This document shows positions 32,994 to 43,234 of a DNA stretch of 64,000 bases, piece by piece. The DNA lies in assembly GCF_044324875.1 (NCBI RefSeq), contig NZ_CP172185.1; one strand, given 5' to 3'. Each line of letters begins with the position of its first letter. Within the stretch, counting starts at the first letter, position 1. The position numbers were made by a program, and so were the translations under genes. The DNA comes from Escherichia coli (GTDB taxonomy: Bacteria > Pseudomonadota > Gammaproteobacteria > Enterobacterales > Enterobacteriaceae). The notes beneath the pieces are model-generated. The model ran no database searches and was not told the DNA's origin. It saw only the letters and a list, made by a program, of their open reading frames with translations.

Positions 32994-34646
<1,653 letters not shown>

Positions 34647-34718: not shown

Positions 34719-36032
<1,314 letters not shown>

Positions 36033-36050
36033 GTCTGACTTTATCTGATT

Positions 36051-36082
36051 AAAAAATGCCAGCCTTCGGGCTGGCATTTTTT
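36051..36082. terminator. bidirectional intrinsic terminator between convergent eno and the TPM operon
   Basis: AAAAAATGCCAGCC-TTCG-GGCTGGCATTTTTT hairpin flanked by A-run and T-run. Confidence 0.8.
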
Positions 36083-36091
36083 ATGGTTGAG

Positions 36092-36985
36092 TTACCAGCG
36101 ACCGGACGCGCCGCCACCGCCAGAAGAACCGCCCCCGCCGCTAAATCCGCCGCCACTTGAGCCGCCACCGGAAGAGGATGAAGAAGAACCTTTTCTTGAA
36201 GCTCTTTCTTTACTGAGTTTTTTGTATTTGGCGCGTAGCTTTTTATTAACGATAAGCCAAAAAATAACCAGTGGTACGATAGCAAAAGGCGTGAGCATAC
36301 CGCAGGCAACGATTAAATTCGTCCATGGTCCTGGCTCGGCAACATAGAGGAATACCATCCCATAAATTCCGCCAGTCAGTGCTATCCAGGGTAAATTCGA
36401 CGGATCGGTAAAAACAATAAAATATGAAAGTACCGCCAGCAATATAATTACAGCAAGCGATAATGGAATAGGGGGATTGATACTGTAATAATCCCCCCTG
36501 TCTTCCGGTAATTCACCATTCAACAGAAGCGCTCCGATATTTTCGCTTGCCAGTGTTAACCCACCCATCAAGTCATCACTTTTGAAGGCTGGGATTAATA
36601 TATTACGGATAATCTTCGCTGCTTGCAGATCGGTAACCACCCCTTCCAGCCCGTAGCCCACTTCTATACGGACAGCATGATCTTCCCAGGCAACCAGCAG
36701 TAAAATACCATCGTTTCGCTGCTTATCTCCCAGTTTCCAGCTATCAAAAACGCGTGTTGCATATTGTTCAATGGTATCGTCTCCGGTGGATGGCACTATT
36801 AATACGGCGACCTGGGCCCGTGTTTTTTGTGTGATATCCTGCAGCTGTTGTGTCAGTGATTGTTGTTCAGACGTGCTTAACGTACCAGTAATATCGGTCA
36901 CCTGTTGGCGCAGCTCCGGCACAGCAATTTGCTGGGCAAGCCCAGGAAGGCACCATAAAGTAAGTAGAAAAAAGATTAAGCGCAT
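36092..36985 (-). CDS. ygcG: TPM-domain membrane protein (YgcG-like), paralog C
   Basis: 297-aa ORF: signal peptide, TPM/DUF477-like domain, hydrophobic segments, Gly/Ser-rich tail ending GRW; symbol assigned by position next to eno only. Confidence 0.7.
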   Translation of the reverse strand: MRLIFFLLTLWCLPGLAQQIAVPELRQQVTDITGTLSTSEQQSLTQQLQDITQKTRAQVAVLIVPSTGDDTIEQYATRVFDSWKLGDKQRNDGILLLVAWEDHAVRIEVGYGLEGVVTDLQAAKIIRNILIPAFKSDDLMGGLTLASENIGALLLNGELPEDRGDYYSINPPIPLSLAVIILLAVLSYFIVFTDPSNLPWIALTGGIYGMVFLYVAEPGPWTNLIVACGMLTPFAIVPLVIFWLIVNKKLRAKYKKLSKERASRKGSSSSSSGGGSSGGGFSGGGGSSGGGGASGRW

Positions 36986-36990
36986 AATGA

Positions 36991-38139
36991 TTACCAGCGT
37001 CCGGATGAACCGCCGCCTCCTGAAGAACCACCACCACCGCGGAAAGAATTTCTCGACGAAGAGCGAGAATGAGCATTACGATTCCCCGTTTTCCTGTTGC
37101 TTTTTTCTCCTGACCCCAGTTTAAGATTGCCAGTAAATTTGGCCACAATGATCAGCAGAACTATGCCAGCAATGGTTATTGGGCCGATAAAATGATCAAT
37201 TAGCCCAATAATTGTTGAGATGAATGCAATATCTTTATTACTGGCGAACACCAGGCACCATCCCACAATAATTATCAGCATCACGACAAACAATGAATTT
37301 CGTCCTGATTCACGAACCTGCGGAGTCTTCTTTTGTTTTTTCACTTTAGTGTTTTTATTTTTGGGGGCCAGCATCATAGGAAATGCGCGGCACATATTAA
37401 AAACTACCGCGAGACGCTGCCAGCAGGTTGTTGCTAACAATAAACTAAAACAAACGACCGATACCCGCCGAATGATGACATCGTCCTGAAAGGAGAAAAA
37501 CCAGACCATAGGGGTAATCATCGATATCATCCATATGCCACGCCCTGGGCGGCTGGCAAATCGCCAGAGGACAACGATGGCAACGATCATCAGCAGTGTC
37601 CAGGCAAGACAAGGCAGCGAACGTTGCGGATTAGCAAACAGATGATTGGCTAAAGCATCCAAAGGGCTAAGGTTCGCTTTGATATGGGTAAACTGTGCGA
37701 TGCTTTCAATTCCGCCCGTTAATCCAGCAAAGAGATTGTTTTTTTCGAATTCTGGCTGCATATGGTAACGAACAATTTGCGCAGCTTGTTCCGGCGGCAA
37801 CATCTGTTCCAGTCCATGTCCAATCTTCATTGACGCCAGCCCTTCCGGCCATACGACGAGAATTAAGATACCTTCGCCATATCGCTTCTCTCCAACGGGT
37901 TTCCAGTGATATACCCCGTATCTCTGCGAGGCTGCAAGTTTAATGTTTTTGCCCCCTGTGGTCGGCGTGACCAACACGGCCACCTGGAAGTGGTTTTGCT
38001 GCACGAGAGTCTGTAATTGTTGAGTTAAAGCAGTTTGTTCTTCTGTCGTTAATGTCCCGGTTAAGTCAGTTACTGAAGGCAATTGTTCAGCGAATACCTG
38101 AAAACCGCATAGCATCAGAAGTAAGAGAAAAATACGCAT
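36991..38139 (-). CDS. TPM-domain membrane protein, divergent paralog B
   Basis: 382-aa ORF: signal peptide, TPM-like N-domain, several hydrophobic segments, Lys-rich linker, Gly/Ser tail ending GRW; 5 bp upstream of paralog C. Confidence 0.7.
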   Translation of the reverse strand: MRIFLLLLMLCGFQVFAEQLPSVTDLTGTLTTEEQTALTQQLQTLVQQNHFQVAVLVTPTTGGKNIKLAASQRYGVYHWKPVGEKRYGEGILILVVWPEGLASMKIGHGLEQMLPPEQAAQIVRYHMQPEFEKNNLFAGLTGGIESIAQFTHIKANLSPLDALANHLFANPQRSLPCLAWTLLMIVAIVVLWRFASRPGRGIWMISMITPMVWFFSFQDDVIIRRVSVVCFSLLLATTCWQRLAVVFNMCRAFPMMLAPKNKNTKVKKQKKTPQVRESGRNSLFVVMLIIIVGWCLVFASNKDIAFISTIIGLIDHFIGPITIAGIVLLIIVAKFTGNLKLGSGEKSNRKTGNRNAHSRSSSRNSFRGGGGSSGGGGSSGRW

Positions 38140-38153
38140 ATCAATTCCTTTTG

Positions 38154-39047
38154 TTACCAGCGCCCGGAAGCGCCACCGCCACCAGATGAACCGCCACCAC
38201 CGCTGAAATTGTCATTGTTGAATGAAGAGGATGACGATGATGAATAGTGGGAGGAAGAATTGCTTCTTGTATGGCGTGATGGCTGGTTGGCATCACGCAT
38301 CGAATCCCGAACCTTTTTGCCGAAGGGGGTAAAAGCGATGGCGACAGCCAGGAACGGTGTGGCGAAGCAGAGTAATGTTGCGAGTACTCCCCAGCTTCCG
38401 CTGAAGCCTGCTATAGGTAAAACAAAGGCCAGTACAATAGCTGCGAAGCAAATTACTCCCAGCGTTTTGATATATCCTCTGGCAGAAATAAACGTCAGTA
38501 CTATCGCCCAGACTAACAAAGCCCACCAACCGCTAAAAGGCAAAGGGTGATCGGTCGGTGTTATCGTTGCTAAATTATTCCCCGTCAGACGACTTTCAAT
38601 ATCGCTGATTCCCTTTTGCAAACCACCAGCCAGGTCCCCTTTTTTAAATGCCGGAATAATACTGTTGCGAATAATTTTCCCGGACTGTGCATCCGTAATA
38701 ATACCTTCCAGTCCGTAACCGATTTCAATACGCACGGTATGATCCTGCCAGGCGACTAACAGTAGAACGCCATCATCGTGGTCTTTATCACCCGGTTTCC
38801 AGCTATCGAATACCCGCGTTGCGTACTGCTCGATGGTTTCATCGCCTGTTGTTTCAACCACTAACACGACCAACTGTGCGTTGTTTTTTTGCGTCAGGGC
38901 TTTAATCTGGTTGGTCAGGGTGTTTACTTCACTGTTTGTCAATGTGCCGGTTAAGTCATTCACATACCTGGGTGATTCAGGTACTGGAATTTGTGTGGCA
39001 AACACAGATGAACAGAAGAAAGCCATAAGGAAGATAAAATTTCGCAT
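38154..39047 (-). CDS. TPM-domain membrane protein, paralog A
   Basis: Close paralog of 36092-36985; ORF runs to 39077, but the start at 39047 (MRNFIFLMAFFCSSVFA signal peptide, GGAAG RBS) avoids overlapping lemA. Confidence 0.7.
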   Translation of the reverse strand: MRNFIFLMAFFCSSVFATQIPVPESPRYVNDLTGTLTNSEVNTLTNQIKALTQKNNAQLVVLVVETTGDETIEQYATRVFDSWKPGDKDHDDGVLLLVAWQDHTVRIEIGYGLEGIITDAQSGKIIRNSIIPAFKKGDLAGGLQKGISDIESRLTGNNLATITPTDHPLPFSGWWALLVWAIVLTFISARGYIKTLGVICFAAIVLAFVLPIAGFSGSWGVLATLLCFATPFLAVAIAFTPFGKKVRDSMRDANQPSRHTRSNSSSHYSSSSSSSFNNDNFSGGGGSSGGGGASGRW

Positions 39048-39060
39048 ATAACTTCCCCGC

Positions 39061-39663
39061 TTAATGCGCATTAGCATTCTGGCTAAAATCTATTATTGGT
39101 GCTTTACTCACAGCTGCGACGTCATCCGGCAAATAATTTTTCTTCGGTGTGTAATCCATGACCTTTGCGGTTAATACAGCGGGGAATTTGCGGATAGTGA
39201 CATTATATTGTTCAATGGCTTTAATATATCTTCCTCGCGCAACGGCAATTCTATTTTCACTTCCTTCGAGCTGTACCATTAAATTTTGATAGAGTTCCTG
39301 AGCTTTTAAATCAGGGTAACGTTCACTAATTATCGTTAACTGACCGAGAGTGCGAGACACCTGCGCCTGGGCTTGTTGCCAGGCTTGTAATTTTTGCGCA
39401 TCTCCCGGAGCTTGCTGAAGATCGCTACTGGCGCGATTAGCCTGGCTACGTGCCAATGTTACGGCTTCCAGTACCTCTTGTTCATGGCTGGAATAACCTT
39501 TAATACTGGCGACAAGATTAGGAATAAGATCGGCGCGACGTTGATATTGATTCAATACCTCAGACCAGGAGGCGTTAACCTGCTCATCATAGGTTTGAAT
39601 ATCGTTATATCCACAGCCTGATAAATTGGCAATAAATATAATTACGATGAATATCCTGAGCAT
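39061..39663 (-). CDS. lemA: LemA-family lipoprotein
   Basis: 200-aa ORF with lipoprotein signal (LSGC lipobox) and LemA-like helical body; first gene of a four-gene minus-strand operon. Confidence 0.75.
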   Translation of the reverse strand: MLRIFIVIIFIANLSGCGYNDIQTYDEQVNASWSEVLNQYQRRADLIPNLVASIKGYSSHEQEVLEAVTLARSQANRASSDLQQAPGDAQKLQAWQQAQAQVSRTLGQLTIISERYPDLKAQELYQNLMVQLEGSENRIAVARGRYIKAIEQYNVTIRKFPAVLTAKVMDYTPKKNYLPDDVAAVSKAPIIDFSQNANAH

Positions 39664-39835
39664 GTCTATGTCCCTTTTAATTAATTCCTTAAAACATAAT
39701 ACGCCGCTTCATTTTATTCTTTATGATCTCATCCACTTTTTGCCTTAAACCTGCCTGTAACAGAATGTTAATAAGACATGATTGTTGTGGCAGGATCTGC
39801 AATAATTAACAATTATCCACTTCACAGAGAATGCT

Positions 39836-40845: not shown

Positions 40846-41118
40846 GAGTTCCCCGCGCCAGCGGGGATAAACCGCTTCATCTGTCGGGCTAACTGGACAA
40901 AGAAACGAGTTCCCCGCGCCAGCGGGGATAAACCGTCGGTTTGACATCAAAGAAGCCATCAATCAGGGAGTTCCCCGCGCCAGCGGGGATAAACCGGTCT
41001 GGCCATAGGAACAAAGAAATTTGTCTTTGAGTTCCCCACGTCAGCGGGGATAAACCGGACACAGAGCGCCGCTATAGCGCCTATGCCAAGAGTTCCCCGC
41101 GCCAGCGGGGATAAACCA
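40846..41118 (+). CRISPR. type I-E CRISPR array (CRISPR2.1 position), 5 repeats and 4 spacers
   Basis: 29-bp repeats GAGTTCCCCGCGCCAGCGGGGATAAACCG at 40846, 40907, 40968, 41029 (variant CCCCACGTCAG) and 41090 (terminal, ends A); 32-bp spacers at 40875-40906, 40936-40967, 40997-41028, 41058-41089. Confidence 0.95.
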
Positions 41119-41571: not shown

Positions 41572-41709
41572 ATATTCCTTGTAAAAACAGGGATAAACCG
41601 AACTAGTTAAAGTTTTTATTATGTTCCCTGCATCAGCGGGGATAAACCGGACTTGTTATCATTTTTTAAGTTGTCGAACTTATGTTCCCCGCGTCAGCGG
41701 GGATAACCA
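41572..41709 (+). CRISPR. degenerate CRISPR remnant (CRISPR2.2-3-like)
   Basis: Three decayed repeat-like units ending GGGGATAAACCG (41572-41600, 41621-41649, 41682-41709, the last with a 1-bp deletion); intervening segments of 20 and 32 bp; AT-rich leader-like region upstream. Confidence 0.6.
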
Positions 41710-41755
41710 TTCAGGTATGTTCAGGCCGGGCAGTTTCCCGCCCGGTCTTCCTCAC

Positions 41756-43234
41756 TTACGCATTCGACCAGCTCTGGATCGAATCTTCATTCCCCAGCTC
41801 ACCATGCATCACTTCATACGATTTTTTCAGGATCACATCAGTGTGTTTGGTTAGGTCTTTGAAAATGCCTTTATTCATCGCGTTGTAGCGTTTGGCGTTG
41901 CTCTCAACAGGCATAAAGATATCTTTCACGCGAACCATTTTGTCGACAGCCGTTGCGTAATCCGGGTATAGCCCCAGACCTACCGCCGTATTAATCGCTG
42001 CCCCCAGGCTTGCACAACCATTAATGGCGTTACGGCGTGCCGGAAGGTTGAACACGTCGGCAAAAATCTGCATAAACAGATCGCTGTTCGAACCGCCGCC
42101 AGTAATGATCACATGCTTTGCAAAGTGATTCATTTCATTACACATATTGTCGTAATTGTTCTTCAGCGTCAGCGCCACGCTTTCCAGTATCGAACGATAT
42201 ATCCATGCGTAATCCATGCTGGAATCAAAGCCAATCATAATCCCGCGTTTGTACGGTTCCCACGGATTGGTCAGCCAGTCCAGCACCGTCATCAGACCAT
42301 TACAGCCTGGCGGCACACAAGAAGCTTTTTTGTTGAGTAAATCTTCCGGTGAAAGATCCTGCGCCCTGGCATCCTGAATTAACGACTCGCCTAGCATGTC
42401 GCGCAGCCAGCTCACCGTCCACATGCCTTTGCGAATACCGTAACCTTCATACAGCAAGGTTTGCGGAATAGAAGACATAATCGGCCAGTACGCTACCGGA
42501 TCTTTCGGCAGTACTTTGCCGTTCATCATCAACGCGATGTAAGTGCCAAGAGAAATTACCGCAGTTTCATCATCCAGTAACCCGGCTCCCAGTGCTTCTA
42601 CCGGTTTATCACTGGTGGTACAAACAACCGGCAGCCCAGCCGGGAAATGTGTCGCCAGCGCGGCTTGAGGAGTGATATGCCCAAGAACAGTGCCCGGCAT
42701 TTGCACATCAAACAGCATATGACGGGGGATATTAAACTTCTCCATGACTGCGGCATCTTCACTCCATGCCCAGGTCTTATAATCCACCGGCCACTGACCA
42801 AAATAGTTGGCGATATTGTCTTTAAACTCGCCGGTTAAGCGATGCGTCAGATAACCCGAAAAAGAGGTGACATATGCCACGTCAGGATTCGTATGTTCGT
42901 AAGGGCGTGTAACGCGTGCATCCTGCCAGCTAATCAACGGCGCAGCTGGCGTGCCATCGGCTTTCAATAACGCACGGCAGCAACGGATGGATCCCAGACC
43001 AATACCGACAATATCTTCTTTATTTCCGGCAAACTGACTCATCAAATCGTGACCGGCAAAGCATAATGATGCCCATAAATCGTCGTCAGGATGTTCTGCG
43101 GTATCGGCATCTGGCGTGTGCATCGGCTGCAATAAGCCTTTGCCTTCGCAAACCACATTACCTTCCAGATCGTACATCACCACTTTTGTGCTCTGACTTC
43201 CACCATCAATCCCTATGATGTATTTTTTCGACAT
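41756..43234 (-). CDS. ygcE: FGGY-family carbohydrate kinase YgcE
   Basis: 492-aa ORF beginning MSKKYIIGIDGGSQSTKVVMYD. Confidence 0.85.
   Translation of the reverse strand: MSKKYIIGIDGGSQSTKVVMYDLEGNVVCEGKGLLQPMHTPDADTAEHPDDDLWASLCFAGHDLMSQFAGNKEDIVGIGLGSIRCCRALLKADGTPAAPLISWQDARVTRPYEHTNPDVAYVTSFSGYLTHRLTGEFKDNIANYFGQWPVDYKTWAWSEDAAVMEKFNIPRHMLFDVQMPGTVLGHITPQAALATHFPAGLPVVCTTSDKPVEALGAGLLDDETAVISLGTYIALMMNGKVLPKDPVAYWPIMSSIPQTLLYEGYGIRKGMWTVSWLRDMLGESLIQDARAQDLSPEDLLNKKASCVPPGCNGLMTVLDWLTNPWEPYKRGIMIGFDSSMDYAWIYRSILESVALTLKNNYDNMCNEMNHFAKHVIITGGGSNSDLFMQIFADVFNLPARRNAINGCASLGAAINTAVGLGLYPDYATAVDKMVRVKDIFMPVESNAKRYNAMNKGIFKDLTKHTDVILKKSYEVMHGELGNEDSIQSWSNA

Follow-up and report, generated by a model that had tools for sequence, protein, structure and literature searches.

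Three YgcG-type TPM paralogs with a common glycine/serine-rich C-terminal motif in a lemA gene cluster between eno and queE of Escherichia coli

Organisation of the eno-queE interval

When analysing a window of 64,000 nucleotides (nt) from an Escherichia coli chromosome (contig NZ_CP172185.1) four tightly packed genes were found on the minus strand between eno and queE; a lemA gene followed by three genes, here called A, B and C, each encoding a TPM-domain protein with a predicted signal peptide and the same glycine/serine-rich ending (Table 1). All three are paralogs of old origin and belong to a variable enteric form of a widespread LemA/TPM operon. The cluster is preceded by pyrG (33009-34646) and eno (34734-36032) and followed by queE, all three on the plus strand. 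The intergenic gaps lemA/A/B/C are 13, 14 and 5 nt and because of this close spacing the four genes would be expected to form one operon. Comparison of the locus with that of E. coli K-12 revealed that paralog C is the positional allele of ygcG. In other strains the genes are named "LemA family protein" and "TPM domain-containing / YgcG family protein" by RefSeq, and the start of A at 39047 matches the RefSeq annotation of the O157 ortholog.

The GC content of the interval (36033-39835) is 45-47%, compared to ~51% in its flanks. An Rfam scan of the locus identified no RNA family, and a scan with PADLOC-DB for anti-phage defence proteins gave nothing significant, the sole match being B against PDC-M18B (E = 0.007, 13.8 bits). 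Promoter-like sites, when the locus was scanned with promoter and terminator consensus sequences, were fewer than in shuffled sequences.

Table 1. Features of the lemA-TPM cluster. Positions are those of the 64,000-nt window; TM, transmembrane; aa, amino acids.
Feature	Position	Strand	Description
lemA	39061..39663	-	operon gene 1; Pfam PF04011, 164 bits; predicted lipoprotein
TPM-A	38154..39047	-	297 aa: signal peptide, TPM aa 29-151, 3 TM helices aa 173-239, basic/Ser-rich disordered linker, C-terminal motif
Tail motif of A	38157..38207	-	FSGGGGSSGGGGASGRW, aa 281-297; translation
TPM-B	36991..38139	-	382 aa: signal peptide, divergent TPM aa 23-149, ~5 TM segments split by Lys-rich loop, basic linker, C-terminal motif
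Lys-rich loop of B	37297..37365	-	PKNKNTKVKKQKKTPQVRESGRN, aa 259-281, 10 K/R in 23 residues; predicted cytoplasmic by positive-inside rule
Tail motif of B	36994..37044	-	FRGGGGSSGGGGSSGRW, aa 366-382; translation
TPM-C	36092..36985	-	297 aa: signal peptide, TPM aa 29-152, 3 TM segments, strongly basic segment, Gly/Ser linker, C-terminal motif
Tail motif of C	36095..36145	-	FSGGGGSSGGGGASGRW, aa 281-297; translation; also point where K-12 ygcG homology resumes
Divergent intergenic region lemA/queE	39664..39835	.	presumed operon promoter region; kept in K-12 yqcG-queE

TPM domains, signal peptides and predicted fold

The products of A, B and C match the Pfam family TPM (PF04536) with 139.5, 72.2 and 133.2 bits, far above the gathering score of 22.1 bits, and cover positions 1-123/124 of the 125 in the profile, so that the three TPM open reading frames (ORFs) proposed in an earlier reading made from the sequence only, without database searches (the sequence-only reading), are confirmed. 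Reading of the protein sequences identified N-terminal Sec-type signal peptides ending VFA-TQ (A), VFA-EQ (B) and GLA-QQ (C), and hydropathy showed at least one transmembrane helix after the TPM domain in all three proteins, with three hydrophobic helices followed by a K/R-rich segment in A, C and K-12 YgcG. In B the Lys-rich loop is situated between helices 3 and 4, and both this loop and the added hydrophobic segments, already pointed out in the sequence-only reading, could be verified from hydropathy and sequence.

Alignments of the family showed that the invariant residues D31, G86, G93, G112 and P132 together with the near-invariant R106-I107-E108 and E114 are all present in A and C. The five invariant positions are also found in B, but here S-M-K replaces R-I-E.

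A model of A made with AlphaFold2 (AF2) from 63 sequences predicts the TPM domain (aa 21-150) with a predicted local distance difference test (pLDDT) score above 93, moderately confident helices at aa 173-189, 194-212 and 217-239, and disorder at aa 240-285. When the model was run through Foldseek the best matches were BA41 of Bizionia argentinensis (PDB 5ANP; TM-score 0.89-0.90, target-normalised), 7TBR, 2KW7, TLP18.3, BA42, Psb32 and a mycobacterial supercomplex subunit, with E-values from 2e-12 to 2e-5 for 5ANP, 7TBR, 2KW7, TLP18.3 and Psb32, and profile matches reach the same entries. The predicted TPM fold of A is thus a solid assignment. In a search with NF047379, the NCBIfam equivalog for Psb32/TLP18.3 with a cut-off of 160 bits, A and C scored 35.1 and 33.6 bits and B gave no match. 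PF25184, the Pfam family of YxzE-like putative bacteriocins (gathering cut-off 40 bits), gave 23.6 bits for C over aa 234-286 and no match for A and B.

The C-terminal motif and its conservation

A, B and C all terminate in F[SR]GGGGSSGGGG[AS]SGRW, which matches the class motif [FYW]-S-G4-x-[SF]-G4-A-S-G-x-W, and among the ORFs in the six frames of the window no others have this ending. The shared Gly/Ser-rich tail ending in GRW, as described in the sequence-only reading, is accordingly real and far beyond what is expected by chance.

At the DNA level the 17 codons of the tails are identical between paralogs at 39-42 of the 51 nt and differ at 9-12, nearly all of the differences being synonymous. 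Comparing the tails in pairs, the proportion of synonymous differences (pS) is 0.53-0.67 and that of non-synonymous differences (pN) 0-0.056, and since pN is close to 0 at such values of pS, the comparison reveals strong purifying selection on the tail peptide. An assembly duplication or a recent gene conversion of the tails was considered and rejected from the 39-42 of 51 identical nt, the synonymous nature of the differences and the recurrence of the genes in ~1,100 complete E. coli genomes; the same arrangement in these genomes also dismisses the concern in the sequence-only reading that the copies could be assembly duplications of one gene.

To place the motif in the family B was searched against 1.84 billion cluster representatives, and among the matches listed 130 were diverse TPM proteins of at least 220 aa. 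The motif and its terminal W were found in 118 of them (91%). Counting from the C-terminus of these 118 sequences, an aromatic residue is found at -17 in 87, S/F at -10 in 116, A at -5 in 100, S at -4 in 113 and G at -3 in 102, while the motif glycines occupy -15 to -12 and -9 to -6 and W is at -1 in all 118, by selection of the sample. The G, A, S and W positions of the motif each carry 3.2-4.3 bits of information, compared to ~1-2 bits per position in the preceding linker, and across the 63 aligned sequences neither the tail glycines nor W297 vary, on par with D31, G86, G93, G112 and P132 of the TPM core. Throughout the family the head and the motif are thus conserved, with the anchor and the linker free to vary. 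The final 17 residues of K-12 YgcG are identical to FSGGGGSSGGGGASGRW, and 92 of the 120 closest database relatives of A end in ASGRW, the remainder being mostly truncated or frameshifted.

Taken from these comparisons, the motif is ancestral to the whole exported TPM1/YgcG class across many phyla, TPM1 being the tail-bearing TPM protein of LemA/TPM operons (see below), and because of this ancestry the tail says nothing about the particular duplication in enterics. The proposal in the sequence-only reading of a shared functional module holds in so far as the tail behaves as a conserved module; it is not a derived trait of these copies but is present family-wide, including in K-12 YgcG. The opposite view, low-complexity convergence lacking positional conservation, does not agree with the data, as the non-Gly positions are conserved at the extreme C-terminus.

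Variation in the length of the G-blocks does occur. Tails with one G-block are found as FSGGGASGRW in the A orthologs P0021-P0025 of E. albertii and as ...GGSSGGASGRW in the K-12-type YgcG proteins P0117 and P0120, and in C of O157 there is a 4-aa G/S insertion immediately before the motif; these variants fit slippage in GGN-rich DNA. When the motif string was looked for in the literature in combination with TPM, no paper treating the motif itself was retrieved. A glycine-rich extension of TPM proteins is mentioned in passing in a 2025-26 preprint. All together the observation holds but is for the most part ordinary; such a tail characterises the family, the genes have already been annotated and no new kind of system is needed to account for them.

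Relationship between the three paralogs

In the sequence-only reading A and C were considered near-duplicates, which could not be upheld. Over the full length they are 47.9% identical, the TPM domains sharing 58% and the membrane parts ~27% of their residues, the synonymous divergence (dS) between the paralogs is saturated and the membrane parts are unalignable. A and B are 39% identical and B and C 36%, and the membrane regions of all three are at the level of shuffled sequences (z = 1.1-3.0; A-C z = 1.7). The blocks said to be shared by A and C, IEQYATRVFDSWK and LLLVAW.DH.VRIE.GYGLEG, are indeed present in both proteins but are simply the most conserved motifs of the family, for which the 63-sequence consensus reads ...IExYxxRVxxxWKLG...DDGVLLLVAKxDRxxRIEVGYGLEG. 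The ratio of non-synonymous to synonymous divergence (dN/dS) proposed as a check on the A/C pair was computed and was uninformative as dS is saturated; orthologs from O157 and E. albertii and the tail-only pN/pS were used instead. Between the window and E. albertii dN/dS is 0.05 for LemA, 0.20 for A and 0.22 for B.

In a neighbour-joining tree of TPM domains, rooted at midpoint, the enteric A clade is sister to the C/YgcG clade, the latter including a protein named by its source as Klebsiella spallanzanii, and B forms a long branch whose placement is insecure. The best identities of the TPM domain of B are 38-41% to enteric A and C compared to 27-35% to other bacteria. This supports a probable old duplication within the lineage, B having diverged at an accelerated rate. 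The duplications are old, since dS is saturated and since E. albertii and Klebsiella already have both A and B at this site. The history suggested in the sequence-only reading, a tandem duplication followed by neofunctionalisation of B, is therefore retained with respect to the paralogy and to B having diverged fastest, but the duplications are old, and neofunctionalisation is a suggestion only, what is shown for B being purifying selection (dN/dS 0.22 compared to E. albertii).

The distribution of B is narrow; seven representatives were found below 1e-30 and one of these is full length, P0121 of E. albertii, which is 82% identical and represents the single cluster, at 50% identity, of full-length B outside E. 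coli. At queE/eno the genes lemA-A-B are found in one E. albertii genome and lemA-A-B-C in the E. albertii type strain and in another Escherichia-like contig. A Klebsiella sp. genome harbours lemA-A followed by a 261-aa B-type protein (L005 6911-7696) and a 130-aa membrane protein. The B-type protein has lost its TPM core by an internal deletion and has no Pfam match, but has kept the signal peptide, five hydrophobic segments (3 + 2), the Lys-rich loop and the tail; the 130-aa protein is homologous to a 120-aa "hypothetical protein" of E. coli EC11 (L002 689-1051). B is a lineage-restricted derivative that keeps its membrane part and tail rather than the TPM head. An origin of the extra segments of B by internal duplication of a "3-TM plus basic" module was rejected, as the halves of B are not significantly similar to each other or to A/C (z = 1.1-3.0).

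Allelic variation and regulation at the locus

Population counts were made among 5,426 complete E. coli genomes. The B segment was matched in 1,113 genomes, the body of A in 1,453, in 338 of these at 60-80% identity, and the body of C in 1,114, with a coverage of at least 80% in 782; ~330 genomes contain only the 5' 30% of C and are C/ygcG hybrids like strain KE51. The eno-queE interval is multi-allelic, with lemA and three TPM genes in ~20% of the complete genomes, the K-12-type ygcG and yqcG in most, and lemA-A together with a 120-aa membrane protein as a third arrangement. CFT073 and ATCC 25922 are examples of strains with the four-gene version. Some alleles have lost the tail; the O157:H7 ortholog of A (L001 2986-3660) contains an in-frame stop after codon 224, with loss of helix 3, linker and tail, and other strains contain frameshifted A variants with proteins ending ...KGSGFDA.

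According to BLAST the homology between the window and K-12 breaks at 36173, in the tail-coding DNA of C, and at 39631, in the 5' end of lemA. Of the final 60 nt of C, 57 are identical to K-12 ygcG, compared to 14-31 of 60 further upstream. The position of the breakpoint inside the tail-coding DNA of C suggests that this conserved stretch serves as a recombination junction. From 39631 onward the window is 94% identical to the K-12 yqcG-queE region. The idea that K-12 yqcG is a remnant of lemA was rejected; the proteins are unrelated and the common part consists of the 5' flank and the first ~33 nt of lemA.

In K-12 the yqcG-queE intergenic region binds PhoP (PMC4974570) and σS RNA polymerase (PMC4447067), and deletion of yqcG raises the expression of queE (PMC4974570). 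For lemA, regulation by PhoP and σS polymerase can only be inferred, and strains in which lemA replaces yqcG might regulate queE differently.

Beyond queE, between this gene and ygcE, a CRISPR array with five repeats of the type I-E repeat GAGTTCCCCGCGCCAGCGGGGATAAACCG and a 61-nt period is situated at 40846-41118, which we take to be the known E. coli CRISPR locus adjoining ygcE/ygcF. The array is annotated as CRISPR by RefSeq in other strains. A degenerate remnant with three repeats is located at 41572-41710 and the small "ORFs" at 41621-41888 are repeat artefacts.

LemA/TPM operons and the motif in other genomes

A pattern scan of 100,044 species genomes gave 80 loci for comparison, spanning Alpha-, Beta- and Gammaproteobacteria, Bacteroidota, Nitrospinota, Spirochaetes, Brocadiaceae and one bacterium of the candidate phyla radiation (CPR). 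In 62 of the 80 loci lemA is followed by a tail-bearing TPM1, mostly with gaps of -4 to +25 nt and with the same adjacency as in the window, and 59 contain the complete triad of lemA, tail-bearing TPM1 and a second TPM gene, TPM2. The TPM2 protein, also encoded in 66 of the 74 loci with a tail-bearing TPM1, is ~165 aa long, matches Pfam TPM, has neither signal peptide nor tail and ends in NELPDxPV(V/I)L; in Bacteroidota it contains an inserted two-helix hairpin. Six loci with a seemingly tail-less TPM1 are contig-end cuts or frameshifts, and all 76 motif-bearing ORFs in the comparison loci encode TPM proteins. AF2 modelled the end residues of TPM2 as a β-strand on the TPM2 sheet (E163-165; loci L010-L088, e.g. 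L039), and going by such models both TPM classes seem to use a conserved C-terminal peptide. A search of the window with a hidden Markov model of TPM2 identified no TPM2, only weak cross-matches to A and C; genes 3 and 4 of the enteric operon are exported tail-bearing paralogs instead.

The LemA of the window has a lipobox, L-S-G-C, at aa 14-17 as read from its sequence. LemA proteins of related proteobacterial operons carry LSGC or LTNC immediately before the conserved GYN with which the domain starts, and elsewhere an N-terminal signal anchor is found. Since either a lipobox or a signal anchor precedes the domain, the LemA domain should be periplasmic/extracytoplasmic, on the same side as the TPM1 head.

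The motif was also looked for outside TPM proteins using a profile of the last 42 tail residues, which retrieved mostly short C-terminal YgcG-type fragments, one of them from a visibly split Burkholderia TPM gene; such a sample, both small and biased, does not yield the share of carriers that lack TPM. A stand-alone gene encoding a 64-aa protein of helix and tail has no TPM or LemA gene within 4 kb. In a genome with 72% GC (L090 4548-5610, 3.0-Mb contig) five small genes in tandem each encode a Sec signal peptide followed by a ~27-aa mature peptide that ends in ...F-x-GGGG-xx-GGGG-ASGGW or in a Cys/Gly-rich variant. Two genes for ATP-binding cassette (ABC) exporters and a PadR regulator adjoin them, neither TPM nor LemA is encoded within 5 kb, and the peptides look like a bacteriocin-like or signalling peptide family. 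Finally, at L091 3110-5213 a LemA-TPM2-TPM1 operon, with an order unlike the proteobacterial one, is followed by a hairpin-like inverted repeat and a separate gene for a 70-aa product that has an N-terminus resembling a double-glycine leader, MIELSSAECSQINGG, and ends in ...GGGSFGGGGASGSW. The architecture is modular, with unrelated membrane regions in A, B and C, stand-alone genes for a TM segment plus tail, and motif peptides; the motif is a module carried by different kinds of protein, perhaps in more than one compartment.

Topology of the tail and competing explanations

Judged by hydropathy and the positive-inside rule, all three tails should be located in the cytoplasm, because the head is exported, the number of helices is odd and basic residues follow the last helix. 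In A, B, C and K-12 YgcG alike, K/R clusters adjoin the end of the last helix, and the relatives with a single TM helix (P0148, P0201, P0193, P0152 and P0214) also have basic residues after this helix; in these head and tail cannot share a side.

As a whole the locus is held, with moderate confidence, to be best explained as a four-gene operon at a multi-allelic site, with three old YgcG/TPM1 paralogs whose tail is a tethered cytoplasmic docking peptide. Each paralog would then consist of a Sec signal peptide, a periplasmic TPM domain, a fast-evolving polytopic anchor (3 helices in A and C, ~5 in B), a linker that is first basic and then a disordered Ser/Gly stretch, and the invariant 17-residue motif. 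This motif would be a short linear docking peptide on a flexible leash, displayed at the cytoplasmic face, where a partner could be bound by β-strand addition of the motif, and it would in this way connect the periplasmic TPM/LemA module with an intracellular component. Earlier work has suggested that the TPM domain acts like a chaperone, and a claimed phosphatase/nucleotidase activity is disputed (PMC11237479; PMC12419801); going by the family literature only, the heads of A, B and C are probably assembly/repair chaperones for membrane complexes and not phosphatases.

Several points weigh against a cytoplasmic docking peptide. In the AF2 model of A aa 290-296 form a β-strand with pLDDT ~95, after a stretch of 45 residues below 50, and this strand presumably docks on the protein's own exported TPM sheet, the sole sheet in the model; such a docking is impossible with the tail in the cytoplasm, which means that one of the two, the model or the predicted topology, must be wrong. 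A crude helix counter applied family-wide gave mixed counts (1, 2, 3 and more), the method being too rough. The five tandem Sec-signal peptides with the motif at L090 show that it can also occur outside the cytoplasm, and the single-G-block variants (FSGGGASGRW) in E. albertii show that the full motif is not indispensable everywhere. No partner of the tail was found in this analysis, and a literature search found no experiment on these proteins, the topology of YgcG included.

Among the other explanations the one closest to the sequence-only reading, a recent tandem duplication with near-identical A and C, a neofunctionalised B and a tail shared by that descent, agrees with the A and C clades being sisters in enterics, with B being closest to enteric A and C, and with the TPM domain of B being the most divergent (72 compared to 133-140 bits) and having lost R-I-E. 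It is considered unlikely as a whole, and in its recent, near-duplicate form it is already largely refuted by A and C being 48% identical with saturated dS and unalignable membrane parts, by the presence of A and B at this site in Klebsiella as well as in E. albertii, and by a tail that, being found in 91% of diverse members and in K-12 YgcG, is older than any enteric duplication. The tail could also be nothing but a low-complexity Gly/Ser spacer with no sequence-specific role, formed by compositional convergence or GGN slippage, as the variable, low-complexity nature of the preceding linker, the G-block variants (4 aa more in C of O157, one block less in E. albertii and K-12-type variants) and the compositional nature of the weak Pfam YxzE and GRP matches might suggest. 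Against such a spacer, the non-Gly residues are conserved by position (A -5, S -4, S/F -10 and the aromatic -17), the motif is always at the extreme C-terminus and pN is ~0 at a pS of 0.5-0.7, and of all the explanations this one is regarded as the least probable.

Two explanations let the tail bind a TPM domain. In one, considered unlikely, the C-terminus is periplasmic and the tail adds a β-strand to its own or a sister TPM domain, so that the paralogs could cross-dock by swapping tails. The AF2 strand with its high pLDDT and the single sheet in the model speak for this, as does the fact that AF2 left the same motif undocked on TPM2, which makes the prediction not indiscriminate, and small motif peptides with signal peptides exist (L090), as does the motif peptide with a double-glycine-type leader that adjoins a LemA-TPM operon (L091). 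It is at odds with the three post-TPM helices followed by K/R clusters in A, C and YgcG and with the single-TM relatives mentioned above; furthermore AF2 ignores the membrane. In the other, a cytoplasmic TPM1 tail docks on the neighbouring TPM2 and the enteric A, B and C keep the tail as a relic or use another TPM. That TPM2 is so often encoded with a tail-bearing TPM1 (66 of 74 loci, 59 of these also with LemA) and that TPM2, without a signal peptide or anchored by its inserted hairpin, would in both cases face the cytoplasm is consistent with such docking. To model it a paired alignment was made in which each of 33 TPM2 proteins was joined to the final 45 residues of the cognate TPM1, but in the resulting AF2 model of the chimera no docking was seen; the tail is disordered (pLDDT 43-50) and the C-terminal PVVM of TPM2 itself forms the extra strand. 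The window lacks TPM2, and the K-12 eno-queE locus lacks both lemA and TPM2, yet in E. coli, K-12 included, the tail is under strong purifying selection; docking on TPM2 is rated as very unlikely. A wider possibility, suggested by the AF2 model of A and thought unlikely, is that the motif is a dedicated ligand of the TPM fold by β-strand addition, a general and so far undescribed docking code used in cis, between paralogs or by free peptides such as those of L090 and L091. This would require an unexpected topology, export of the tail or an unrecognised compartment-specific partner.

The locus is of interest since LemA/TPM operons are widespread without an established function and YgcG is uncharacterised even in the model organism. 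A 17-residue C-terminal peptide on a flexible leash, the most conserved part outside the TPM core, gives a concrete and cheap experimental handle, and E. coli strains carrying zero, one or three extra copies at one locus form a natural genetic series.

Comparison with known systems

Compared to the canonical lemA-TPM1-TPM2 operon the window shares the first position of lemA, followed by an exported, anchored TPM protein with the same C-terminal motif, and differs in that the third gene of the canonical operon is TPM2, whereas the window has two further exported tail-bearing paralogs. The closest system within the species is ygcG of K-12 (b2778), which resembles C in its position beside eno, signal peptide, TPM domain, three hydrophobic segments and Gly/Ser tail; its TPM domain is 56% identical to that of C while the membrane part is unrelated in sequence, and the K-12 locus contains only ygcG and the 46-aa yqcG, with no lemA, A or B.

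At the structural level the model of A superposes on BA41 of Bizionia argentinensis (PDB 5ANP) with a TM-score of 0.89-0.90 at 34% identity. From profile scores BA41 looks like the TPM1 type and BA42 (PDB 4OA3) like the TPM2 type, and the genes of both presumably neighbour a lemA gene.

Small YxzE-like proteins (PF25184) resemble C in having one hydrophobic helix followed by a Gly-rich C-terminus, and the weak matches cover the last helix and the tail both of C and of the stand-alone TM-plus-tail proteins. They have no TPM domain, and C and these stand-alone proteins all score below the cut-off (17-30 compared to 40 bits). The label "bacteriocin" of YxzE comes from an in-silico BAGEL prediction (PMC1538908).

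YdjH of B. subtilis, a TPM protein linked to PspA, belongs to a different operon (pspA/ydjF-G-H-I, with an SPFH protein) that has no LemA. Psb32/TLP18.3, the assembly and repair factors of photosystem II (PSII), resemble A, B and C in having an extracytoplasmic (lumenal) TPM fold and one or more C-terminal TM helices as an anchor. They differ in lacking the glycine-rich C-terminal extension (bioRxiv 10.1101/2025.05.08.652833) and in their partner, PSII, which is absent from E. coli.

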